Shown here: positions 2,474 through 46,728 of the stretch, one piece after another
Layout: the number at the start of each line of letters is the position of its first letter
Position numbering within the stretch: position 1 is the first letter of the stretch
Assembly (NCBI GenBank): GCA_034421335.1
Contig: DAOUKL010000030.1
Location: 8,753 to 72,752, forward strand
Origin: Dehalococcoidia bacterium
Lineage (GTDB): Bacteria; Chloroflexota; Dehalococcoidia; Lucifugimonadales; Australimonadaceae
DNA length: 64,000 nt
Reading direction: 5' to 3'
Position numbers and translations under genes: made by a program
Notes under the pieces: generated by a model
The model's input: only the letters and a program-made list of their open reading frames with translations
Told to the model about the DNA's origin: nothing
The model's database searches: none

Positions 2474-3775
2474 TTACTCGCCGAAGATGCTGCCTCCGGC
2501 TATCACCCGCTGAATGTCGTTCACCGAGATGGCCACGATCATCGCGACGAGCGCCGCAAACCCGATGAGGTGCGCCATTCGCTCCTTCCCGGGAGCAAGC
2601 CGGCGCCCTCCGCGGGCCAGTTCGAGCAACACCAGCGCTATCCGCCCGCCGTCGAGCGCGGGAATCGGCAGCAGGTTGATGATGGCGAGGTTCATCGACA
2701 GCAGCGCCGTCCATGTAACGAGCGGACTGAGGCCGGCGCGCGTAATCTCGTTCGTCGCCTGCGCGATGCCCACCGGCCCCGACAGCTCGATCCGCCCCGC
2801 TCCGCCCAGCCAGCGCGAGACCTCGTTGCGGAACAGCACGAGGACCTCCCACATCTGGCGAAGGCTCGACCCCACGGCCCCGACCGGCCCCTGCGACCGC
2901 GACTCCGTGGGCCGCGCCTGCACAGTCAGGCCATCGAGCCCGCCGGCCTCCGGCGGCAACTCCAGCGTAACGAGCGTCCCCCGCCGGAGCACGTCGATCC
3001 GGACCGGTGAACCCGGCGACGCCGCGAGGGCCGCCGTCACAACCGCCTCCGGGTCGCCCTCGTTGAGCACGCGCGAGCCGCCGACACGCAGCAGCAGGTC
3101 GCCTTCCTGCAGTCCGGCAACCGCGGCCCCCGTTCCCGGCGCCGCAGCCGCAACCGTCAGCCGGCCCTCCGACAGCAGGACGCCGACGGCGCCCTCGCCC
3201 GGCGGTGGGGCGACCCGCGCCTCGGGTATCCGCACCTCGACGAGCCTGCCCTGGCGCTCAACCTCTAACGTGACGTCGGCCCCAAGCCGCAGCTGGATCG
3301 CCTTCTGCAGCGTCGTCGAATTGTCGACGGGGCGCCCGCTCGCCGTTCGCACCACGTCGCCGGGGAGCACGCCCGCCTCCTGCGCCGGCGACCCGGGCGC
3401 CACTCCCAGCACTGCTACGTCCGTAACGACGACTTGCTGTGGCGTGAGGAAAAGGGCGGTGAACAGCAGCACCGGGAGGAGCGCGTTCATCCCCGAACCC
3501 GCCCCCAGGATGGCGAGGCGGCGCCACGCGCTCTTCGCCGCGAAGCTCTCCGGTCCGCGCGGGTCCTCCTCCCCTAACAGCCGCACGAACCCGCCGAGCG
3601 GCAGCAGGTTGAGCGAGTACAGGGTGCCCCCTCGCGTGAAACTGAACAGGCGGGGCGGGTAGCCGACTCCGAACTCCAGCACCCGCACGCCGGACAGCTT
3701 CGCCACGGCGAAGTGGCCCAACTCGTGCACGACCACGAGCACAACCAGCACCGCGATGAAGGCGAGGATGCCCAC
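2474..3775 (-). CDS. rseP: RIP (site-2) zinc metalloprotease RseP with PDZ domains
   Basis: HELGH, NLLPLGGFVRL and NLLPIPALDGG motifs; start trimmed to GTG 3775; lies between dxr and ispG. Confidence 0.95.
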   Translation of the reverse strand: MGILAFIAVLVVLVVVHELGHFAVAKLSGVRVLEFGVGYPPRLFSFTRGGTLYSLNLLPLGGFVRLLGEEDPRGPESFAAKSAWRRLAILGAGSGMNALLPVLLFTALFLTPQQVVVTDVAVLGVAPGSPAQEAGVLPGDVVRTASGRPVDNSTTLQKAIQLRLGADVTLEVERQGRLVEVRIPEARVAPPPGEGAVGVLLSEGRLTVAAAAPGTGAAVAGLQEGDLLLRVGGSRVLNEGDPEAVVTAALAASPGSPVRIDVLRRGTLVTLELPPEAGGLDGLTVQARPTESRSQGPVGAVGSSLRQMWEVLVLFRNEVSRWLGGAGRIELSGPVGIAQATNEITRAGLSPLVTWTALLSMNLAIINLLPIPALDGGRIALVLLELARGGRRLAPGKERMAHLIGFAALVAMIVAISVNDIQRVIAGGSIFGE

Positions 3776-3788
3776 GCCCGCGCCGCCG

Positions 3789-4895
3789 CTAGCCGCCGGG
3801 GGCGACGGCGTCCGCCTGTCGCCGCGCCCACTCGTCCGCCTCCAGCACCGCCTCCGGCGTCGCGACGTCGAACGGCTCGTGGCGTTCGAGCACGCCCTCG
3901 ACGACCCGCCGGATGTCGCCGAAACCGATGCGTCCGCCGAGGAACATGTGCACCGCTTCCTCATCCGCCGCGCTCAGCACCGACGGATAGCTCCGCTGCT
4001 TGCGTCCCGCCTCGACGCCGAGCGCGAAGCACGGGTAGCGCGCAGCGTCCATCTCCTCGAACGTGAGCGACGGGTATGCGAGCGGGTTGTACTTCGCGAG
4101 CGACGCATTGGGCGCCCTCGCCGGGTACGTCAGCGCGACCTGGATGGGCAGCCGCATGTCCGGCGGGCCCATCTGGGCCTTCACCGAGCCGTCCGCGAAC
4201 TCCACCATCGAGTGAATGACGCTCTGCGGGTGCACCACGACGTCGATCTGCTCGAACGGCATGTCGAACAGCCACCGGCTCTCGATGACCTCGAACGCCT
4301 TGTTCATCAGCGTCGAGGAGTCGACCGTGATTTTCCGGCCCATCACCCACGTCGGGTGCGCGAGCGCTTCCGCCGGCGTCACGCTCGCTATCTCGTCGAG
4401 CGGACGCTTGCGGAACGGCCCGCCGGACGCCGTGATGATGAGCCTGCTCACCGGCTCGTGCTCCCCGCGCAGGCACTGCCAGATGGCCGACGGCTCGCTG
4501 TCCACGGGCAGGAGCGGCGCGCCGTGCTCGGCGGCGGCGCGGGCGACCATTTCGCCGGCCATCACGATGACTTCCTTGTTCGAGAGGGCGACCTCCTTGC
4601 CGGCGTGCAGTGCGTTGAGCGTCGGGGCCAGCCCCGCCCGGCCCGTCGTCGCCACCATCACGACATCGACGTCCGGCGCGACGACCATCTCCTCCATCGG
4701 CGTCAGCCGCGCGTCGCCGACGGCCTCCGGCCAGGTCATGCGCGGAGCGAACTCCGCGGCCTGACGCCTCAGCAGGTCGACGTTGCGCCCTACGGCGAGT
4801 CCGACGACGTTGAACTCGCCGGGCAGCGTCCGGACGACGTCCAGCGTCTGGGTTCCAATCGAGCCCGTTGAGCCAAGCACTACGAGGTTCTTCAT
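3789..4895 (-). CDS. dxr: 1-deoxy-D-xylulose-5-phosphate reductoisomerase
   Basis: LGSTGSIGTQTLDV, LLPVDSEPSAIWQ, ITASGGPFR, HPTWVMGRKITVDS; start at ATG 4895. Confidence 0.97.
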   Translation of the reverse strand: MKNLVVLGSTGSIGTQTLDVVRTLPGEFNVVGLAVGRNVDLLRRQAAEFAPRMTWPEAVGDARLTPMEEMVVAPDVDVVMVATTGRAGLAPTLNALHAGKEVALSNKEVIVMAGEMVARAAAEHGAPLLPVDSEPSAIWQCLRGEHEPVSRLIITASGGPFRKRPLDEIASVTPAEALAHPTWVMGRKITVDSSTLMNKAFEVIESRWLFDMPFEQIDVVVHPQSVIHSMVEFADGSVKAQMGPPDMRLPIQVALTYPARAPNASLAKYNPLAYPSLTFEEMDAARYPCFALGVEAGRKQRSYPSVLSAADEEAVHMFLGGRIGFGDIRRVVEGVLERHEPFDVATPEAVLEADEWARRQADAVAPGG

Positions 4896-4922
4896 GCCGC
4901 CCTCCGCCCTGCCCATAGCCTA

Positions 4923-5612
4923 TCAGGCGGGCCAGACTTGCGCCGCCGCGTAGACGACCACAAACACGGGCAACAGACTGTCGAGGCGATCGAGGAGCCC
5001 CCCGTGCCCGGGAATCAGCGCGCCGGAGTCCTTCACGCCCGCCTTTCGCTTCAACCACGACTCGAGCAAATCGCCGGCCTGCGCGGCGACGCCGACGCCC
5101 ACCCCCAGCGCAACTGCGGGGAGCAGGCGGCTCTCGACGCCTTCGAGGAGAGCGACGAGCGCAACGGACGCGGCGACGGCGCCGAGCAGGCCGCCGGCAG
5201 CGCCTTCCCACGTCTTGCCGGGCGAGACGGTCGGGGCCATGCGGCGGCGCCCGGCGAGTCTCCCGACGACGTAGGCGCTCGTGTCCGTCGCGAATGTTGC
5301 GAGGAACGCCAGCGCCGTCCATTGCAGGCCGGCGTCGCCGAGCCGCAGGGAGATGAGCGCGGCGAACGGGAGAACGACGTATGCGGCGCCCGACAGGGCG
5401 AATGCGCCGTCGCGCAGGGCCGGTCCCGGGCCGCGCAGAGCCCGGGCGCGGCGGAGCAGGTCCAGCATCTCGCGGAGAGCCAGCACGGCGGTCGCCGAGG
5501 CGACGCCTATGAACCATGGCCCTCCCGCCCAGAGCACGAGGAAGAGGACCGGCAGGCCCACGGCGGCGCTGACGAGGCGAGTGCGCAGTTCGGACCGGGG
5601 CGCGCCGGCCAT
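4923..5612 (-). CDS. cdsA: Phosphatidate cytidylyltransferase
   Basis: SPGKTWEG, GDLLESWLKRKAGVKDSG and PGHGGLLDRLDS motifs. Confidence 0.95.
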   Translation of the reverse strand: MAGAPRSELRTRLVSAAVGLPVLFLVLWAGGPWFIGVASATAVLALREMLDLLRRARALRGPGPALRDGAFALSGAAYVVLPFAALISLRLGDAGLQWTALAFLATFATDTSAYVVGRLAGRRRMAPTVSPGKTWEGAAGGLLGAVAASVALVALLEGVESRLLPAVALGVGVGVAAQAGDLLESWLKRKAGVKDSGALIPGHGGLLDRLDSLLPVFVVVYAAAQVWPA

Positions 5613-6352
5613 CAGTCTTCTTTCGGAAGCGCTCCGAACCGGCGGGACCGCCGCCGGTACTCGGCGAGCGCCTGCTCAACCTCCGCGCCGTCGAAGTCCG
5701 GCCAGTACGTGGAGGTCTGGTAGTACTCGCTGTAGGCGGCCTGCCAGATGAGGAAGTTGCTCAGCCGCTGCTCGCCCGCCGTGCGGATGATTAGGTCGGG
5801 GTCGGGCACGTCCGGCAGGCACAGGTTCGCCCGCACCAGCTCCTCCGTAACGTCCTCGGGGGCCGCGCCGGCCGCGACTATTCCCCGCACCGCCTCCACG
5901 ATCTCCGCGCGGCCTCCGTAGTTGAGCGCCACGCATAGCTCGAGGCCCGTGTTGTCCGCGGTGAGCGCGACGGCGTCCTCGATGGCGTCGGCGATGTCCG
6001 GCGGCAGCTGGCGCCGCGCGCCCATGTGCCGGATGCGGACGTTGCGCCGGTGAAGCTCCTCCGTCTCCTGGCTGATGGCGTAGCGCAGGAGAGCGAAGAG
6101 GCTGTCGACCTCGCCGTTGGGCCGGCGCCAGTTCTCCGTGGAGAACGCGAAAAGAGTCAGGAACTCCACGCCCGCCAGGTGCATCGCCTGTACGACCGGG
6201 CGGAGGTTGCGTGTCCCAGCCTCGTGGCCCTCCAGGCGGGAAAGCCCGCGCTCGGCAGCCCAGCGGCCGTTGCCGTCCATGATGATGGCGACGTGGCGCG
6301 GCGACGACGTCGCGCTGCTCGGCGCCTGCTCGCGGGAAGAGCCGATGGTCAC
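5612..6352 (-). CDS. uppS: Undecaprenyl/polyprenyl diphosphate synthase
   Basis: HVAIIMDGNGRWA, AFSTENWRRP, NYGGRAEI, DLIIRTAGEQRLSNFLIWQ. Confidence 0.97.
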   Translation of the reverse strand: MTIGSSREQAPSSATSSPRHVAIIMDGNGRWAAERGLSRLEGHEAGTRNLRPVVQAMHLAGVEFLTLFAFSTENWRRPNGEVDSLFALLRYAISQETEELHRRNVRIRHMGARRQLPPDIADAIEDAVALTADNTGLELCVALNYGGRAEIVEAVRGIVAAGAAPEDVTEELVRANLCLPDVPDPDLIIRTAGEQRLSNFLIWQAAYSEYYQTSTYWPDFDGAEVEQALAEYRRRSRRFGALPKED

Positions 6353-6356
6353 GCGC

Positions 6357-6929
6357 CTAGACCTCCATCAATTCGGCCTCTTTCTTCGAGGCCACTTCGT
6401 CAGCGAGGGCGATGTGCGCGTCCGTTATCTTCTGCAGCGCGTCCTGCTCCCTGTGCAGGTCGTCCTGCGAAATCTCCTTGTTCTTCTCGAGGCTCCGCAG
6501 GTGCTCCAGCGCGTCGCGCCGGATGTTGCGCACGGCGACGTGCGCGTCCTCCTGCTGCCGCTTCAGGCGCTTCACCATCTCCCGCCGGCGTTCCTGCGTC
6601 ATCGCGGGGATCGGCAACCGGATGACCGACCCGTCGATGTTCGGCGTCAGCCCGAGGTCCGCCTTTTGCAGCCCCTTGCCGATGACGTTCAGGGCGTTCT
6701 TGTCGAACGGCTGCACCATCAGGAGACGCGGGTCCGGCGCCGTCACCGTCGCCAGTTGATTGAGCGGCATCTCCGTCCCGTACGCCTCGATGCGCACCGA
6801 ATCGAGCATCGACGGGTTCGCCCGGCCAGTGCGGATGCTGTCCGACTCGTGCCGCAGCACTTCCACGCTCTTGTCCATGCGCTCGGCGGCGTCTTCCAGG
6901 ATCAGTTCGACTTCCTCGTTCTCAGCCAT
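6357..6929 (-). CDS. frr: Ribosome recycling factor
   Basis: IRTGRANPSML, LGLTPNIDGSVIRLPIP, VAVRNIRRDA; start at ATG 6929. Confidence 0.97.
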   Translation of the reverse strand: MAENEEVELILEDAAERMDKSVEVLRHESDSIRTGRANPSMLDSVRIEAYGTEMPLNQLATVTAPDPRLLMVQPFDKNALNVIGKGLQKADLGLTPNIDGSVIRLPIPAMTQERRREMVKRLKRQQEDAHVAVRNIRRDALEHLRSLEKNKEISQDDLHREQDALQKITDAHIALADEVASKKEAELMEV

Positions 6930-6972
6930 GGTCGAGGACCTCTCTTCTAGGCATCGCCTTTGGGCCGGGGAG

Positions 6973-27406: not shown

Positions 27407-27481
27407 GCGGGCGTAGCTCAGGGGTAGAGCATCTGCTTCCCAAGCAGAGGGTCGTGGGTTCGAATCCCATCGCCCGCTCCA
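27407..27481 (+). tRNA. tRNA-Gly (anticodon CCC)
   Basis: Acceptor GCGGGCG/CGCCCGC, anticodon arm TCTGC-TTCCCAA-GCAGA, GGTTCGAATCC, encoded CCA; TACAAT -10 just upstream. Confidence 0.97.
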
Positions 27482-41296: not shown

Positions 41297-41940
41297 ACGC
41301 GCGCCGGGCCAGGTTCGACGCCTGCGAGAAAGCGCTGCCGGTCCCTGCGTCGCTGCTGGGGTCGCTTCTCGCCGAGATCGACGACGTCGCGGAATTGAAG
41401 TGCGCCCTGCGCGTGGCGGGGCTCGCGGCGCGGGCGAGCGGCGCCCCCAAGCGCGTCGCCGCCTCCCGCCTGGAGACGGACTCGGCGCTGCTCGCCGCCC
41501 TTGGTTCGCCGGAAGAGATCAGGCGGGGGGTGGAGCGCGCCGTGGAGCGCGGCGTCCTGCTGGAGGCGTCGGGCTGGCTGCTGCTGCGGACCCCGCAGAA
41601 TGAGCAGGCGGCGGAGCGGCTCGGCCTGGCCCCGGAGTTCTACGGCGAAGAGAGGGCGGAGCGCCCGAACGTCTACGAACTGTACGAGCAGAACATCGGC
41701 ATGCTGACGCCGTTGGTGGCCGACGAGTTGCGGGACGCGGAGAGGGAGTACCCTGCGGGGTGGGTGGAAGCGGCCATCAGGGAAGCGGCGGCGGGCAACG
41801 TCCGCAACTGGCGTTACGTCGCCGCGGTGCTGGAGCGGTGGAAGAACAGAGGCAGGGGAGCAAAGCGCCGTGGAGAGCCTGGGCGACATCCTGAGACGCT
41901 TACAGCAGCAGAGTATGACGCGCTCCGGCGACGCTCCTGA
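41293..41940 (+). CDS. DnaD-domain protein
   Basis: NVYELYEQNIGMLTPLVA...WVEAAIREAA..NVRNWRYVAAVLERW; lies between dnaB and a DnaC-like ATPase. Confidence 0.85.
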   Translation: MNARRARFDACEKALPVPASLLGSLLAEIDDVAELKCALRVAGLAARASGAPKRVAASRLETDSALLAALGSPEEIRRGVERAVERGVLLEASGWLLLRTPQNEQAAERLGLAPEFYGEERAERPNVYELYEQNIGMLTPLVADELRDAEREYPAGWVEAAIREAAAGNVRNWRYVAAVLERWKNRGRGAKRRGEPGRHPETLTAAEYDALRRRS

Positions 41941-43255
41941 GTGGCTGAAGGAGTTGGACGCCGAGCCGGAGGCGCCGGTCTGCCCGCTGTGCGCGGGGCG
42001 CGGGTGGGTGCGGCGCGACGTTCCGGTGACGCACCCGGACTTTGGCCGCGCGTTCCCTTGCTCATGCCAGGAGGAGGCGAGCGCCGGTCAGCGGCTGGCG
42101 CGCCTGCTGCGGTTCAGCAATCTCGGCATGCTGGCGAGCGTGCGCTTCGACGACCTCAACCCGCAGGGTCCGGGCGCGGGCCCCGAGGCCCAGGCGCGGT
42201 ACGGCATCGCGCTCGACGTTGCGCGGAAGTTCGCCGAAGCCTCCGCCGGCGTGCTGCTGCTCACCGGGGGCCACGGCGTCGGCAAGACGCACCTCGCCGC
42301 CGCCGCCGCCAACCGGCTGATCGAGCGCGGGCAACCCGTGTTCTTCGCCTTCGTGCCGGACCTGCTCGACCAGTTGCGCGGCAGCTACAGCCCGGACTCG
42401 GAGTTGAGCTTCGACGAACTGTTCGACCTCGTGAAGAACGTGCCGACACTGGTGCTGGACGACCTCGGCGGCCACAGCGGCGCGGCATGGGCGGAAGAGA
42501 AGCTCTTCCAGATAATCAACCACCGCTACGTATCCAACCTGCCGACCATCGTCACCTCCTCCGTTCCTGTCGACCGGCTCGACGGCCGGCTGCAGACCCG
42601 GCTGACCGACTCGCGGTGGTCGCGGGTGATCGACCTTGGCGGCAGCGCGCGAGCAGGGACGACGGCTATGGGGGCCATCGAACCCGCGATGCGTCAGTCG
42701 ATGACCTTCGCCTCGTTCTCGCCGGAGGGAAGAAACCTCAGGGGTTACGCGCGGGAGACCCTGAAGGCGGCCTACGACGCCGCGTGGTCGTTCGCGGAAG
42801 ACCCCAGGAGCTGGCTGGTGCTGTTGGGGGACACAGGCTGCGGCAAGACCCACCTGGCAGTCGCGGTGGCGAACGTTCAACTCGAGCGGGGGCGTGAAGT
42901 CTTCTATGCCCTCGTATCCGACCTGCTGGACGACCTTCGCGAGACGTACAGCCCGGACAGCCGGGTCACGTACGACGAGCAGTTCGATCGGGTGAAGCAG
43001 GCCCCGCTGCTCATCCTGGACGACTGGGGGGTCCAGAGCTCGACGCCGTGGGCGCAGGAGAAGCTCTACCAGATCGTCGTCCACAGGCATCACGCCAGGC
43101 TGCCGACGATCTTCACGATGCGCGAGATTCCCAACGGTGAGAACGACCCTATCGCGTCGCGCCTGAACGACTCGCGCGTTTCAACGGTCTGCATCATCCA
43201 GGCGCCGGACTACCGGCCCTCCGGCAACCGCGGCAGGGGCCGATCGTCCCGATGA
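41870..43255 (+). CDS. DnaC/DnaI/IstB-like helicase-loader ATPase with two tandem AAA+ domains
   Basis: N-terminal CPLCAGRG...PCSC zinc motif; Walker A GGHGVGKT and GDTGCGKT; Walker B LVLDDLG and LILDDWG. Confidence 0.88.
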   Translation: MESLGDILRRLQQQSMTRSGDAPEWLKELDAEPEAPVCPLCAGRGWVRRDVPVTHPDFGRAFPCSCQEEASAGQRLARLLRFSNLGMLASVRFDDLNPQGPGAGPEAQARYGIALDVARKFAEASAGVLLLTGGHGVGKTHLAAAAANRLIERGQPVFFAFVPDLLDQLRGSYSPDSELSFDELFDLVKNVPTLVLDDLGGHSGAAWAEEKLFQIINHRYVSNLPTIVTSSVPVDRLDGRLQTRLTDSRWSRVIDLGGSARAGTTAMGAIEPAMRQSMTFASFSPEGRNLRGYARETLKAAYDAAWSFAEDPRSWLVLLGDTGCGKTHLAVAVANVQLERGREVFYALVSDLLDDLRETYSPDSRVTYDEQFDRVKQAPLLILDDWGVQSSTPWAQEKLYQIVVHRHHARLPTIFTMREIPNGENDPIASRLNDSRVSTVCIIQAPDYRPSGNRGRGRSSR

Positions 43256-43692
43256 CGGGGGAGAGGGGCGCGGGGGAACGCTGCGATTTCTGCGCGATCA
43301 TCGCCGGTGAGCTGCCGCGCGAGATTCGCTACGAGGACGACGAGTTCGTCGTGTTCCGCAACAAGCTCGAGTGGGCGCCGGTCATGTGGCTCGTCGTTCC
43401 CCGCCGCCACATGGGCCAGATGGAGTTCTGGACGTCGCCGCTGTTCGAGCAGGGGGCGCGTCTCGCCGTCGCGGTTGGCGAGCAGGATGCGCCCGGGGGC
43501 TTCCGCATCGTCTCCAACTTCGGCGACGACGCCGCGCAGTCGCAGTCCCACGGACATCTGCACGTGCTAGGCGGCGCCGACCTCGGGCTGTACATGGACT
43601 GGCCCGGCAAGGGCGACTACCGGCGCATCGTGTACGGCGGGCGGCGGGCGTCCGCTCCGGCGCCGCAGGCGGAGGCGGAGCGGCGGAAATGA
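43252..43692 (+). CDS. HIT-family protein
   Basis: CDFCAII N-terminus and HGHLHVL histidine triad. Confidence 0.88.
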   Translation: MTGERGAGERCDFCAIIAGELPREIRYEDDEFVVFRNKLEWAPVMWLVVPRRHMGQMEFWTSPLFEQGARLAVAVGEQDAPGGFRIVSNFGDDAAQSQSHGHLHVLGGADLGLYMDWPGKGDYRRIVYGGRRASAPAPQAEAERRK

Positions 43693-44126: not shown

Positions 44127-45194
44127 TTACGCGCCGATGCTCGCGATGCCGTAGAGCTTCGAGACGTTCTCGCGGAGCAGCTTGGCGCGCACGTCTGCGG
44201 GCAGGGCGCCCATGTCGCGTGCGACGATCCGCCGGGAGTCGGGCCATGTGGAGTTGCCATGCGGGTAGTCGCTGGACCACATGCAGTTGTCGGCGCCCCA
44301 CCAGGAGAGGAGCCTGCCGCCGACCGCGTCGTTGAAGAAGGTTGCGTACACCTGCCTGTTGAAGTACTCGCTGGGAAGCATCGTGAGGTCCAGGGCGGCC
44401 CGGTCCTTGCCGTGGCGCTGGTAGTAGTAGTCCCACTGCTCCAGGATGAAGGGCAGCCAGCCGATCTCGTTCTCAACGAGCACCAGCTTGAGCCGGGGGA
44501 AACGCTCCAGCACGCCGGAGAATATGAAGTCGTACAGGGCGTCCATCGCATAAACGAGCTTCAGATTCACGCTGGTCCGTTCCTGTTCGATGCCCCTGTC
44601 CCCTTCGCCGAAGGCCTGCCGCAGGTTGTAGCCGTGGCCGCTGAGGATGTGCAGGGAGACGGGCATGTCCAGGTCCTGGGCGCGCGCCCACAGGGGGTCG
44701 TAGTGGCGCGACGTGAAGGGAAGCTCCGGGGCGGGTACCTGCCACACCACCACTCCGGACATCCCGGCCTTGCGGCAGCGCTCCATCTCTTCGACGGCCG
44801 CCTCGATCCGGTACGTTGAGAGCAGGCCGAGGCCGATGAGCCTGTCCGGGTCCGCCGAACAGTAGTCCGCCAGCCAGTCGTTGTAGACCCTGGCGCACGC
44901 CTCTTCCAGGTCGCGGTCGCCGAGGACGAGCGTCTTCAAGCCGTGCGTCGGATACAGCACCTCGGCGCTGACCCCGTCGCGGGCCATCTCGTTGACCCGT
45001 TCCGACTTGTTCATCCCGCCGGGAGCGTCGTTCCTCCGTGCTCCTCCCAGGTTGGGAGCGCGGTCGCGGAGCGCCCTGGGAAGGTTCTCCTTCCACAGGC
45101 CCGCAGGCTCGATCACGTGAGAGTCCGCCGAGATGAGCGCCTCATCGACCGCAGGGCCGACCTCGGGAGCGTAGGTGCGTTCGAGGATCCCCAT
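44127..45194 (-). CDS. Amidohydrolase-family (amidohydro_2) protein
   Basis: ISADSHVIEP, PVSLHI, ENEIGW, MWSSDYPH. Confidence 0.9.
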   Translation of the reverse strand: MGILERTYAPEVGPAVDEALISADSHVIEPAGLWKENLPRALRDRAPNLGGARRNDAPGGMNKSERVNEMARDGVSAEVLYPTHGLKTLVLGDRDLEEACARVYNDWLADYCSADPDRLIGLGLLSTYRIEAAVEEMERCRKAGMSGVVVWQVPAPELPFTSRHYDPLWARAQDLDMPVSLHILSGHGYNLRQAFGEGDRGIEQERTSVNLKLVYAMDALYDFIFSGVLERFPRLKLVLVENEIGWLPFILEQWDYYYQRHGKDRAALDLTMLPSEYFNRQVYATFFNDAVGGRLLSWWGADNCMWSSDYPHGNSTWPDSRRIVARDMGALPADVRAKLLRENVSKLYGIASIGA

Positions 45195-45393
45195 GACAAG
45201 CCTCCTCGCGAAACAGGCTACGGGCCATTCATGTCATCGCTGGCGCGAGTGTACCGCAGCAGCAGATGACTCACGACGAGCAGCGTATGAGCGGCGATGA
45301 GCGCGTTCTGCGCGCCCGCGAGCGCCGATGGCACGGAATGACTACGCCGTTTCACTCCTGCGGACGGGACTGCCGGAGGAGTGCCGCGAAAAA

Positions 45394-45500
45394 TTGTGGC
45401 TCATTTCTGCTCATTCAGCCTCATTGCACCTCTGACAACGCGTCTCCGCCAGCGCACCAAGTGGGACATTCCGGGACATTGTGAGCCACTGCACCTCTGA
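45394..45500. repeat. Cluster of short periodic direct and inverted repeats (att/arm-site-like)
   Basis: CTCATT x3 at 10-bp period (45400, 45410, 45420); GGGACATT x2 at 10-bp period (45463, 45473); TGCACCTCTGA x2 (45425, 45490); GTGGCTCA/TGAGCCAC inverted (45396, 45482). Confidence 0.6.
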
Positions 45501-45662
45501 GCCGCGCCAGACGGTCCGCGCCGGTTCCGGGCCTCGCAGCCAAACCATGGTAGGGCGGATGAGGACGATTGCGTAAGGGGCGCGTGTCAGTGATGTGGGG
45601 TATCCGCGCAGTTTGCTCTGGGTCACGGGAGTGACTGGATGAGGCTGCGGATGTATACTGAC

Positions 45663-45735
45663 TGGTGGAGCGGTGGGGAATCGAACCCCATGGGTGAGGG
45701 TGTCAAGGCCTACCTGGGAACCATCCCTCCGCCCC
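45663..45735 (-). ncRNA. Compact 73-nt tRNA-like RNA with an alanine-type acceptor (G3-U70, A discriminator, CCA) and non-canonical D/anticodon arms
   Basis: GGGGCGG/CCGCTCC acceptor, T arm TGGGG-TTCGATT-CCCCA, encoded ACCA, D-like hairpin GGGA-TGGT-TCCC, bulged middle stem. Confidence 0.7.
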
Positions 45736-45737
45736 AT

Positions 45738-45768
45738 GACCCCAAGGTGTTATCCTCACCTTGGGGTC
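45738..45768. other. Perfect 12-bp hairpin immediately 5' of the tRNA-like RNA
   Basis: GACCCCAAGGTG-ttatcct-CACCTTGGGGTC. Confidence 0.85.
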
Positions 45769-45777
45769 TCGCTCTCT

Positions 45778-45806
45778 AATCTAACCCGGAGTCTCTAGTG
45801 TGTCAA
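45778..45806 (-). promoter_or_regulatory. sigma70-type promoter for the hairpin plus tRNA-like RNA
   Basis: Minus strand TTGACA (45806-45801), 17-nt spacer, TAGATT (45783-45778). Confidence 0.7.
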
Positions 45807-45837
45807 CACAAGACAGATATACAGAGAGCTATGTCTA

Positions 45838-45867
45838 TTGACGTATCTCTGGGTGCAGTAGTAGTAT
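45838..45867 (+). promoter_or_regulatory. sigma70-type promoter for the 45889 gene (divergent)
   Basis: TTGACG, 18-nt spacer, TAGTAT. Confidence 0.55.
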
Positions 45868-45888
45868 CTGGCTGAGAACACACCCGAG

Positions 45889-46728
45889 GTGCCCTCTATG
45901 ACTGAATATGTACAGCAACAGAGTGCTAGGAAGAAGCCCCGGAGTCCTGCGTACCCCGCCATAGACCTGCCGGAAGCTCTGCAGAAGGCGGAAATTATCC
46001 GCGTGGCTGAGGGCAAGAACGCCACCAACGTGGAGACGGCTCTTGAGCACTGGGGCTACAGTGCCAAGAGCGGGCCAGGCAAGGCGGCCTTGTCAGCACT
46101 AATCAAGCACGGTCTCCTCGAAGACGAAGGGAAGGGCGACGAGCGCAGGGTGAACCTTACTCCGTTGGCTATGACCATTCTGCTGGACGACAGGCCTGAA
46201 TCGGTGGAGCGCTTGCATGCGATTCGGGAAGCTGCATTGCTACCAACCATCTACGGCGAGGTCTGGCGAAAGTATCAAGGTGCACTGCCATCCGACCCTA
46301 CTCTTCGGTACTACCTCCGGCATGACCGCAACTTTCTCGATGACGCTGCCGGTGAATGTATCAAGAATCTCAGATCTTCATTGGCCTATGCACGACTGCC
46401 TGAATCTGACCATGTGTCATCTGAGGTCGCTGACATGTCAGATCAGGTATCCCATACATCTGAAGATCTACAGTGGTCCGATGAAGAACCCTCGTTGGCA
46501 CCACCGTCCACTGTGATCCAACGCCGCCAGCCTGCACCCGAAGCAGCAGATGAGACAGCAACGATGCGAACGTTGCAGATTCCTCTCACGGATGCACCTT
46601 GGGCAACGATTCAAATTCCTTATCCAATGACAGCGCAAGACTGGGAGGAACTCAGAGCCTGGCTCGACTCCAACGCAAGCCCCCTCACCAAGGGCGCCGT
46701 GAAACCGATGCGTAACCCGCTAAACTGA
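45889..46728 (+). CDS. Hypothetical protein, possibly winged-helix DNA-binding, lower GC
   Basis: RSPAYPAIDLPEAL...WGY...AALSALIKHGLLE...VNLTPLA resembles a wHTH; more A/T-ending codons than neighbours; start may be 45898. Confidence 0.7.
   Translation: MPSMTEYVQQQSARKKPRSPAYPAIDLPEALQKAEIIRVAEGKNATNVETALEHWGYSAKSGPGKAALSALIKHGLLEDEGKGDERRVNLTPLAMTILLDDRPESVERLHAIREAALLPTIYGEVWRKYQGALPSDPTLRYYLRHDRNFLDDAAGECIKNLRSSLAYARLPESDHVSSEVADMSDQVSHTSEDLQWSDEEPSLAPPSTVIQRRQPAPEAADETATMRTLQIPLTDAPWATIQIPYPMTAQDWEELRAWLDSNASPLTKGAVKPMRNPLN

Follow-up and report, generated by a model that had tools for sequence, protein, structure and literature searches.

A promoter-driven tRNA-like RNA and its divergent partner gene

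We describe a compact tRNA-like RNA encoded in a 64,000-nucleotide stretch of DNA (the window) from a Dehalococcoidia bacterium (contig DAOUKL010000030.1, assembly GCA_034421335.1). The RNA lies on the minus strand, between an Amidohydro_2 gene (44127-45194, minus strand) and an open reading frame (ORF) of 279 aa that points away from it (45889-46728, plus strand; here the partner gene), and leuS begins 33 nt past the partner gene. Comparison with related loci, labelled L002-L041, places the RNA in a previously undescribed family, in which tRNA mimicry is found in a new setting, the insertion sequence (IS). The features of the window locus are as follows.

45889-46728, plus: partner gene, 279 aa (276 aa from the ATG at 45898), divergent from the RNA
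45807-45888, no strand: divergent control region, with AGATAC twice and GTATATCT, degenerate forms of the (A)GATAA(A)/TTTATCT repeats of other copies
45806-45801, minus: -35 hexamer TTGACA, invariant in the window, L003, L004, L024, L026, L028 and L029
45783-45778, minus: -10 hexamer TAGATT, identical in the same seven copies
45768-45738, minus: leader hairpin GACCCCAAGGTG / CACCTTGGGGTC, a perfect 12-bp stem with a 7-nt loop, ending 2 nt before G1
45735-45663, minus: tRNA-like RNA, a 73-nt cloverleaf including the encoded CCA
45735-45729 with 45673-45667, minus: acceptor stem, 7 bp, with G3.U70
45728, minus: 1-nt linker (A) between acceptor stem and D arm
45727-45716, minus: D arm, 4-bp stem and 4-nt loop
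45715, minus: single A between D arm and middle arm
45714-45693, minus: middle arm, 6-bp stem, with a 9-nt loop CCTTGACAC at 45708-45700 and a bulged C at 45696
45692-45691, minus: variable region CA, 2 nt
45690-45674, minus: canonical T arm
45666, minus: discriminator A73, followed by CCA at 45665-45663
45659-45653, minus: AGTATAC, the window form of a conserved TTATAC motif, 3' of the RNA
45195-45652, minus: the stretch that holds the transposase gene in complete copies; no detectable transposase or IS end here

The body of the window RNA reads GGGGCGG-A-GGGA-TGGT-TCCC-A-GGTAGG-CCTTGACAC-CCTCACC-CA-TGGGG-TTCGATT-CCCCA-CCGCTCC-A-CCA, and an exact 20-mer of it occurs only once in the window. 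Its promoter, TTGACA and TAGATT at a spacing of 17 nt, matches the consensus at 10 of 12 positions; promoter-like sites in 1.5 kb number three, against 0.6 expected. A preliminary description of this DNA had proposed the promoter, the 12-bp hairpin and every arm of the cloverleaf, all of which stand base for base on the minus strand from 45806 to 45663. The irregularities that it listed are there as well: the 1-nt linker, the 4-bp D hairpin with its 4-nt loop, the bulged middle stem with its 9-nt loop and the 2-nt variable region, next to a canonical T arm.

Conservation and covariation in ten copies

Ten distinct copies of the RNA were collected (the window, L003, L004, L008, L009, L024, L026, L028, L029 and L035), a sample of ten sequences that are mostly metagenomic. 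Relatives of the locus were found in metagenome-assembled genomes (MAGs) of Chloroflexota and Actinomycetota. Pattern scans contributed L009 (a Dehalococcoidia MAG), L008 (an Acidimicrobiales MAG) and L035 (an IMG/VR contig). The scan of genomes and metagenomes was restricted to RNAs with A as base 8, which excludes the several true members that lack a linker; it found L008 and L009 only, so that the over-strict pattern in these large collections underestimates the distribution of the family. A relaxed pattern run on viral contigs yielded L035.

The copies share an architecture of about 70 nt plus CCA, with a D stem of 4 bp and a D loop of 3-5 nt, containing GG in most copies. Over the cloverleaf, 97.7% of the alignment cells of the ten copies are paired. 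Compensatory changes on both sides were observed in 12 of 22 pairs, a count inflated for helix 3 (the middle stem) by the placement of its columns. None of 500 column shuffles reached any of five measures, and slid registers gave at most 4-5 such compensated pairs. Covariation is seen in all four helices, three of which (acceptor, D and T) were predicted independently by RNAalifold. It was tested on a hand-curated alignment of nine sequences, in which helices 1, 2 and 4 are gap-free, and on a model-generated alignment of ten; the two agree. Covariance model R1 scores the window RNA at 73.9 bits, versus 20.2 bits for the genuine tRNA-Gly of the window.

The conservation extends to both sides of the RNA. 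Upstream, the -35 and -10 hexamers are identical in seven copies while the 17-nt spacer between them varies; L003, L024 and L026 have the TG of an extended -10, and L009 has a promoter of its own type, TTGACA-16-TATTAT. Nine copies have a leader hairpin of 10-13 bp that ends 2-10 nt before G1, preceded in most copies by an A-run. The hairpin stems are of at least four unrelated sequences (window/L003/L004; L009; L024/L026/L028/L029; L008), and so the whole stem covaries. Its opposite strand was flagged as an intrinsic terminator in L003, whereas the stems of L024 and L026, which are imperfect, were not flagged; the hairpin may also act as a terminator for antisense read-through. Downstream, the trailer motif TTATAC is found in L003, L004, L009, L024, L026, L028 and L035, and as TTATAT in L029, at 0-12 nt past A73 or the CCA. 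We infer that it is a 3' processing site. L003 and L009 can be aligned over the mature RNA plus TTATAC and no further, with 98.7% identity, which marks the RNA as the most constrained piece, re-assorted between partner lineages.

To judge from this record of conservation, the RNA is a selected, promoter-driven tRNA mimic. The preliminary description had held that it was no random relic and had named homologs with compensatory changes as the check; ten copies that conserve promoter, hairpin and cloverleaf, with 12 of 22 pairs compensated, agree with it.

Complete copies as IS1-family insertion sequences

A gene of about 274 aa was found on the strand of the RNA in L003, in L024-L029 and, more distantly, in L023. 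In L003 and L024-L029 it starts 17-34 nt past the CCA of the RNA (or its equivalent) and has a Shine-Dalgarno sequence (SD). No terminator was seen in these 17-34 nt, so a single transcript of RNA and gene is expected. The 274-aa protein passes Pfam PF03400 (DDE_Tnp_IS1) at 35.6 bits versus a threshold of 24.1; its best match in NCBIfam is IS1, at 63.9 bits, below the cutoff of 100; and its plasmid relatives, at 45-50% identity, are annotated as 'IS1 family transposase'.

The inverted repeat (IR) of the element, GGTAGTGTCCTAATTTGAGA, forms a perfect 20-bp pair in L003, and matching IR cores are present at both ends in L026, L028 and L029. The elements so bounded measure 2.2-2.9 kb (L003 4897-7139, L026 100-3017, L028 104-2792, L029 333-2774). 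L003 is flanked on both sides by CCGCTGTCAG, a duplication of 8-10 bp, according to the position chosen for the end of the IR, and this length is in line with the target duplications of 8-9 bp that IS1 produces. L026 and L027 hold the same element (98.5% identity) in different flanks, the homology beginning at the IR, which indicates recent transposition.

By this layout the RNA is, in complete copies, an internal component of an IS1-family insertion sequence. On the transposase strand the order is strong sigma-70 promoter, leader hairpin, RNA, TTATAC, transposase gene and IR; on the divergent side the partner gene, which encodes a predicted winged-helix protein, is followed by an ORF of about 100 aa, in some copies by cargo, and finally by the second IR. 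The preliminary description had viewed the RNA without this context, that is, without its place in the leader of a transposase gene and inside IRs. An attachment-site or tmRNA-fragment origin was rejected, the RNA being internal to the IS and its 5' and 3' halves covarying.

The cargo within the IRs differs between elements. A gene with a SocA/Panacea domain and a small ORF were found in L024 (1016-1982) and L035 (1627-2245), and a ClpP-like protease gene in L026 (2350-2940). In L029 a Cas12f/TnpB-like fragment (2875-3258) lies just beyond the right IR. L023 contains, at about 3632-5835, a distant IS1-family element whose transposase is 40% identical; it has its own IR pair, GGGCTAACGGGGTGTTGCTA, and the same divergent partner layout. 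In its leader of 392 nt the hairpin is a different one and the covariance model detects no tRNA-like RNA; the RNA is likewise absent from alphaproteobacterial IS1 relatives.

Insertion sequences were long held to encode little beyond their transposase, a view changed by the guide RNAs of IS110 and IS200/IS605. The IS110 bridge RNA and the IS200/IS605 omega RNA are conserved non-coding RNAs that stand beside the transposase gene under a promoter of the element's own, and the RNA described here similarly lies inside an IS and adjoins the transposase gene. They differ from it in having variable guide segments, by which target or donor DNA is specified, and in working with a DEDD/serine recombinase or TnpB, whereas here the loops are conserved and the transposase is of the DDE IS1 type. 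RNA-guided targeting was rejected for the present RNA: with loops that are conserved rather than variable, and insertion flanks that share no motif, guidance is not indicated. An IS-borne, covariation-supported tRNA mimic is a different kind of IS RNA from the guide RNAs. A full-text literature search found no description of a tRNA-like RNA in IS1-family or other bacterial IS.

The window copy as a remnant

A tblastn search with the L003 transposase found nothing in the window, and the IR pattern, with up to three mismatches allowed, matched nowhere in it. Weak nucleotide similarity to L003 reaches about 110 nt past the RNA. By these comparisons the window copy is the remnant of an IS, its transposase and both of its ends lost. 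It keeps the promoter hexamers, the hairpin, every base pair of the RNA and a full-length partner ORF.

Persistence without a transposase is not confined to the window. The pair of RNA and partner gene occurs without one in L004/L005 and in L009, and in L035 the RNA is intact with both genes reduced to fragments. L002 has an intact partner gene alone, without the RNA. In the syntenic genomes L004 and L009 the pair occupies one and the same locus, but it is inverted in one relative to the other, and the identity of the partners is only about 28%. The SDR...ABC locus that the two genomes have in common (L009 3330-5088, L004 6952-7965) appears as an insertion hotspot; beside the RNA, L009 has a duplicated 5' fragment (4861-5088) of the adjacent oligopeptide-type ABC ATPase gene.

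The partner protein

The partner gene adjoins the RNA divergently in the window, L003, L004/L005, L024/L025, L026/L027, L028 and L029, and in L009 with a product of 28% identity. Its sequence had no match in Pfam, NCBIfam, PHROGs, PADLOC or PDB. An AlphaFold model (mean pLDDT 79.5, with residues 20-165 above 93) predicts an N-terminal winged helix, a helical bundle, a disordered acidic linker and a C-terminal beta-beta-alpha domain. Foldseek returned generic ArsR/MarR-type winged helices only, all at E above 0.05.

The family is very large. An exhaustive profile search, on clusters at 50% identity, found 6,813 representatives, and for 2,733 of these E was no higher than 1e-30; a word-indexed search had found only 16 members. 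No viral relatives of the partner were confirmed. The partner thus belongs to a very large protein family that is without any annotation, and its homologs sit in widely differing genomic contexts. The RNA was absent at the distant homologs that were inspected (L020, L023 and Tistrella pTM3), so it marks one sub-lineage.

Repeats of the form (A)GATAA(A)/TTTATCT lie inside the promoter spacer of L003, L024, L026, L028 and L029, and in most of these five also just upstream of the -35 and near the divergent promoter. We regard these GATAA-type repeats as putative operators and the partner as the presumed repressor of the element.

Relation to tRNA, tmRNA and other tRNA-like RNAs

ARAGORN, which also searches for tmRNA, did not call the RNA in the window or in nine other member loci. 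Its only call in the window was a tRNA-Gly (27407-27481), which was also the sole window hit to Rfam at the gathering threshold. In a permissive Rfam search the best match was mascRNA (24.6 bits, threshold 42.5) and the second tRNA-Sec (23.2 bits, threshold 47); the best tRNA-clan score was 23-24 bits versus a threshold of 29 (RF00005). These sub-threshold scores indicate tRNA shape without family membership. The preliminary description had supposed that this was neither an ordinary tRNA nor a tmRNA, and had named ARAGORN and the Rfam tRNA, tmRNA, tRNA-Sec and Yrl families as checks; the RNA stayed below threshold in all of them.

Measured against tRNA-Ala, the RNA shares the 7-bp acceptor with G1-C72, G2-C71, G3.U70 and G4-C69, the discriminator A73, the 5-bp T stem and the TTCRAnT loop, which is present in 10 of 10 copies with the G52-G54 pairs invariant. 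GG is present in the D loop of the window and most copies, L024 (TGAG) being the clear exception. Unlike canonical tRNA-Ala, with its 2-nt linker at positions 8 and 9, D loop of 7-11 nt, 5-bp anticodon stem, 7-nt anticodon loop and 5-nt variable loop, the copies have a linker of 0-1 nt, a D loop of 3-5 nt, a 6-bp middle stem that is usually bulged, a 9-nt loop and a variable region of 2 nt. The loop triplet is (U/G)AC in place of UGC or GGC, and the RNA stands in a transposase leader rather than in a tRNA operon.

The tRNA-like domain of tmRNA is similar in its GGGGC...GCUCCACCA acceptor, G3.U70, A73 and T arm, in its presumed alanylation and in its frequent association with mobile DNA. The IS RNA differs in having no mRNA-like domain, tag ORF, pseudoknots (compared with RF00023 and RF04321) or GGUUUCGAC/GGAC hallmarks, and at 73 nt it is too short for a tag; a real D stem and an anticodon-like arm also set it apart, the tmRNA domain having neither. 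Scores were at most 24 bits for Rfam tmRNA (threshold 47) and 13-21 bits for permuted tmRNA. A permuted or two-piece tmRNA was ruled out by the latter scores and because the RNA has its own 5' acceptor strand. BLAST matches of the locus to phages and plasmids were limited to the generic segment of T arm and 3' acceptor strand.

Several tmRNA look-alikes of about 80 nt, reduced to the tRNA-like domain (TLD), were noted in the course of these comparisons: L010 441-520 (minus), L012 1623-1705 (plus), L014 3813-3891 (minus), L016 7542-7624 (minus) and L017 337-423 (plus). In these, GGGGnnGA..GGUUUCGAC is followed by a short closed helix, GGAC, a T arm and CUCCACCA, which leaves no space for a tag ORF. 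Their scores of 54-64 bits on Rfam tmRNA exceed the threshold of 47, in alignments that skip the entire middle of the model. The L017 copy comes after two tRNA genes, and the contig of the L016 copy also has a type II hammerhead ribozyme match (3-69, plus; 39.9 bits, threshold 37).

Allo-tRNAs resemble the IS RNA as non-canonical cloverleaves that standard tools miss, and differ from it in their acceptor/T split of 8/4 or 9/3 and long variable arms (Mukai et al., PMC5389517); in the IS RNA a split of 7/5 is supported by covariation and the variable region has 2 nt. Some allo-tRNAs carry G3:U70 and are alanylated in E. coli, and they occur near toxin-antitoxin or transposon-related genes (PMC5389517). 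There was no match to Rfam Yrl (Y RNA/YrlA) even at E up to 10, and no Ro/TROVE domain among the neighbouring ORFs scanned. Type III toxin-antitoxin systems combine tandem RNA repeats with the gene of an endoribonuclease toxin; here the locus has a single RNA copy and a winged-helix partner without a nuclease domain, and gave no PADLOC match.

In archaeal t-elements, mascRNA/MEN-beta of mammalian lncRNAs and mitochondrial tRNA punctuation, a tRNA-shaped module lies within a longer transcript, whose flanking parts are separated by RNase P and a 3' nuclease, as we suppose for the IS RNA. These processing signals differ from it in having no conserved aminoacylation identity set or anticodon-like loop, and mascRNA, with a score far short of its threshold, resembles the RNA in shape and not by homology. 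We know of no tRNA-like processing signals in bacterial IS.

A frozen acceptor end and a constrained loop

The first five acceptor pairs (G-C, G-C, G.U, G-C, C-G) and A73 are identical in all ten copies, and pairs 6 and 7 covary. The frozen positions include the entire bacterial alanine identity set, A73, G2-C71, G3.U70 and G4-C69 (PMC9976931), each of its four elements being invariant in 10 of 10; the preliminary description had picked out G3.U70 and the A discriminator as determinants for alanyl-tRNA synthetase (AlaRS). The G.U pair is never swapped for G-C or A-U over such divergence, which points to selection for being recognised by AlaRS.

The 9-nt loop has the consensus (A/C)C-U-U-(U/G)-A-C-A-C; its ACAC is unchanged in 8 of 10 copies while the stems drift. 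Its last seven bases fit the rules of an anticodon loop, with Y32, U33 (8 of 10), A35, C36, A37 and C38, and the only common variation in that register is at the wobble position 34 (U/G). The resulting triplet, which is GAC in the window but UAC in the majority of copies, is of the valine type, one base away from the GGC/UGC of alanine. The UGA anticodon with C37 suggested in the preliminary description uses a weaker register, with a pyrimidine at 37 and a triplet whose meaning changes between copies; we dropped it for the register with U33 and A37. Valyl-tRNA synthetase (ValRS) needs A35 and C36 yet is impaired by G.U at 3:70 (PMC9976931). Alanine is, from these identity elements, the likely charge of the RNA.

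In the DNA, the loop CCTTGACAC (45700-45708) echoes the sequence around the -35 of the promoter that serves the RNA (TTGACAC, 45800-45806), and the L009 loop (5218-5226) likewise echoes the -35 region CCTTGACA at 5335-5342. There is no usable -10 after the loop copy of the -35, and the resemblance may be coincidence.

A compact RNA of similar plan was found in a phage tRNA array. L040 592-661 (plus; the same in L041) has G3.U70 and the loop U-CUUGCAC-A (Ala UGC), and scores 46.9 bits on the family model. Its D arm and variable region are short, its linker is 1 nt and its middle stem has 6 bp and a bulge, all as in the IS RNA. In an array of 13 tRNAs otherwise without tRNA-Ala it occupies the single gap, and it was missed by ARAGORN and by the Rfam tRNA model (24.2 bits, threshold 29). 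An RNA built on this compact plan can probably serve as a genuine tRNA, and phage tRNA-Ala genes of this plan are probably under-annotated. Standard tRNA and tmRNA finders and Rfam miss this whole class of compact G3.U70 RNAs, for a census of which covariance model R1 could be used. A further compact RNA, L038 709-781 (plus), was grouped with the L040 type. On a viral contig, L037 2800-2867 (plus) has a G3.U70 acceptor (GGGGCCG/CGGCUCC), a Val-type loop (CUUACAC) and a different core, and scores 40.6 bits on the family model.

Interpretation

We favour, with restrained confidence, a reading in which the IS-borne RNA is excised from the transposase leader, charged by AlaRS and active in trans through its conserved loop. 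The winged-helix partner would repress both divergent promoters via the GATAA-type operators. Once the promoter fires, host tRNA-processing enzymes would recognise the tRNA-like part of the transcript: RNase P would generate the 5' end at G1, the A/U-rich TTATAC trailer would be cleaved by an endonuclease, and CCA would be added where it is not encoded. Processing of this kind, much like that at a t-element or a tRNA punctuation mark, would free the transposase mRNA from its 5' hairpin and release a stable small RNA. The released RNA would be a substrate of AlaRS and would act in trans through its sequence-constrained 9-nt loop, Val-type and anticodon-like with two extra 5' bases. A trans role in addition to processing is favoured because fixed identity nucleotides and a fixed loop are needless for mere processing, and because the RNA outlives the transposase in four copies; such a role would explain why RNA and promoter persist after transposase loss.

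In its strongest form the proposal makes the RNA a functional, alanylated, trans-acting cofactor of this IS1-family lineage, perhaps linking the state of translation or aminoacylation in the host to the production or activity of the transposase, or acting on the ribosome (reading GUN as Ala, or by frameshifting); we put this forward tentatively, as a claim more doubtful than not. If processed and charged, the RNA would to our knowledge make this the first bacterial transposon with its own aminoacylatable tRNA mimic. There would then be a direct link between the host translation apparatus and the control of transposition. A trans-acting cofactor would constitute a new, non-guide class of IS-encoded functional RNAs and would explain why the pair of RNA and regulator is kept.

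A number of observations weigh against the favoured reading. Beyond architecture, conservation and IS layout, its steps are drawn from sequence. The folding energy of the 73-mer is ordinary relative to shuffles (z = -1.2), and its minimum free energy fold differs from the cloverleaf; with so unremarkable an energy, the single sequence could not settle whether the RNA is real, and the case against chance comes from conservation and covariation in the nine other copies. In that covariation, the bulge of the middle stem drifts, and its columns follow a manual placement or a model that was trained on it. L024 and L028 do not encode the CCA, and both promoter and hairpin are missing from L035, so either these features are dispensable or those copies are dead. 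Retention of the RNA in remnants could reflect recent decay rather than selection. ARAGORN and Rfam both reject the RNA as a tRNA, and host enzymes may handle it poorly. Within the elements, no site complementary to the 9-nt loop was found, nor any alternative fold of the transposase leader that would sequester the SD. A riboswitch-like masking of the transposase SD had been considered and was rejected, there being no consistent pairing with or without the tRNA-like part. Lastly, the DNA-binding, repressing role of the partner is deduced from fold class and motif layout.

The alternative that survives best is that the RNA works only in cis, as a punctuation mark or leader whose fold supplies processing sites or a stabilising 5' structure; the released RNA would be functionless and its survival in remnants incidental. 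The position of the RNA, 17-34 nt before the transposase start with no terminator seen between, suits this well. Elsewhere tRNA-like t-elements serve RNase P and tRNase Z as processing signals (PMC7521656), and L023 and the alphaproteobacterial IS1 relatives do without the RNA. Processing enzymes, however, need the shape of acceptor, T arm and elbow, yet it is the outer five acceptor pairs, A73 and the ACAC of the loop that are frozen, and the RNA is intact in four copies that have no transposase. We consider a purely cis-acting role unlikely.

Distinctly unlikely, in our view, is a non-canonical elongator tRNA that is charged with alanine and reads GUN, giving low-level Val-to-Ala mistranslation, or that promotes frameshifting via its 9-nt loop. 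That the last seven loop bases obey anticodon-loop rules with variation confined to position 34, and that the canonical T loop and the D-loop GG of most copies can form an elbow, is what such a tRNA would show; AlaRS ignores the anticodon, and G.U at 3:70 impairs ValRS (PMC9976931). The apparent tRNA-Ala of the L040 phage array, whose compact body is probably functional, keeps this alternative alive. Efficient decoding is nonetheless doubtful for an RNA whose loop has two bases more than usual, whose 6-bp stem is bulged and whose linker and variable region come to only 0-1 nt and 2 nt; neither tRNA detector accepts it. A benefit to the IS is not evident, and no interrupted or frameshifted ORF was found in the IS genes examined.

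We give still less credence to an addiction or defence module of RNA and winged-helix protein, with the RNA as a decoy or antitoxin that protects the element or stabilises it in its host, perhaps by soaking up a factor that targets tRNA or tmRNA. The pair does survive in remnants and shift between contexts, including a restriction-modification/HicB/NYN island in L004; L024 and L035 carry cargo with a Panacea-type antitoxin domain; and irregular tRNAs near toxin-antitoxin systems are on record (the allo-tRNAs, PMC5389517). But neither the partner nor the ORF of about 100 aa has a toxin-like or nuclease domain, L002 retains the partner without the RNA, and the huge partner family is mostly without the RNA where inspected. 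For the primer and antitoxin ideas of the preliminary description no evidence was found, the partner being a winged-helix protein and neither toxin-like nor similar to a reverse transcriptase.

Finally, a functionless, decayed pseudo-tRNA, or a fragment that an integrating element duplicated from a tmRNA or tRNA-Ala gene, is very improbable: the 3' half of the RNA does resemble tmRNA and tRNA-Ala 3' ends, with BLAST matches to phage tmRNA genes there, a score of 24 bits for the L003 copy on Rfam tmRNA, and real precedents for such duplications (as beside the tmRNA of L007), but a complete 5' half covaries with the 3' half in 12 compensated pairs, a dedicated promoter and hairpin are conserved, the RNA lies inside the IS and not at its border, and copies that are 10-25% divergent in different flanks exclude the recent duplication of one locus. 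In L007, a genuine tmRNA (6469-6811) is followed about 95 nt on by a 66-nt partial repeat of its 3' part (6905-6970), the signature of an ssrA-integrated element.

Other genes near the window locus

In the window, a 461-aa ORF (41870-43255, plus strand) contains two tandem IstB/DnaC-like AAA+ modules (IstB_IS21 and Bac_DnaA matches), ahead of which its N-terminus has a CxxC...CxC motif. It is followed by a HIT-family gene at 43252-43692.

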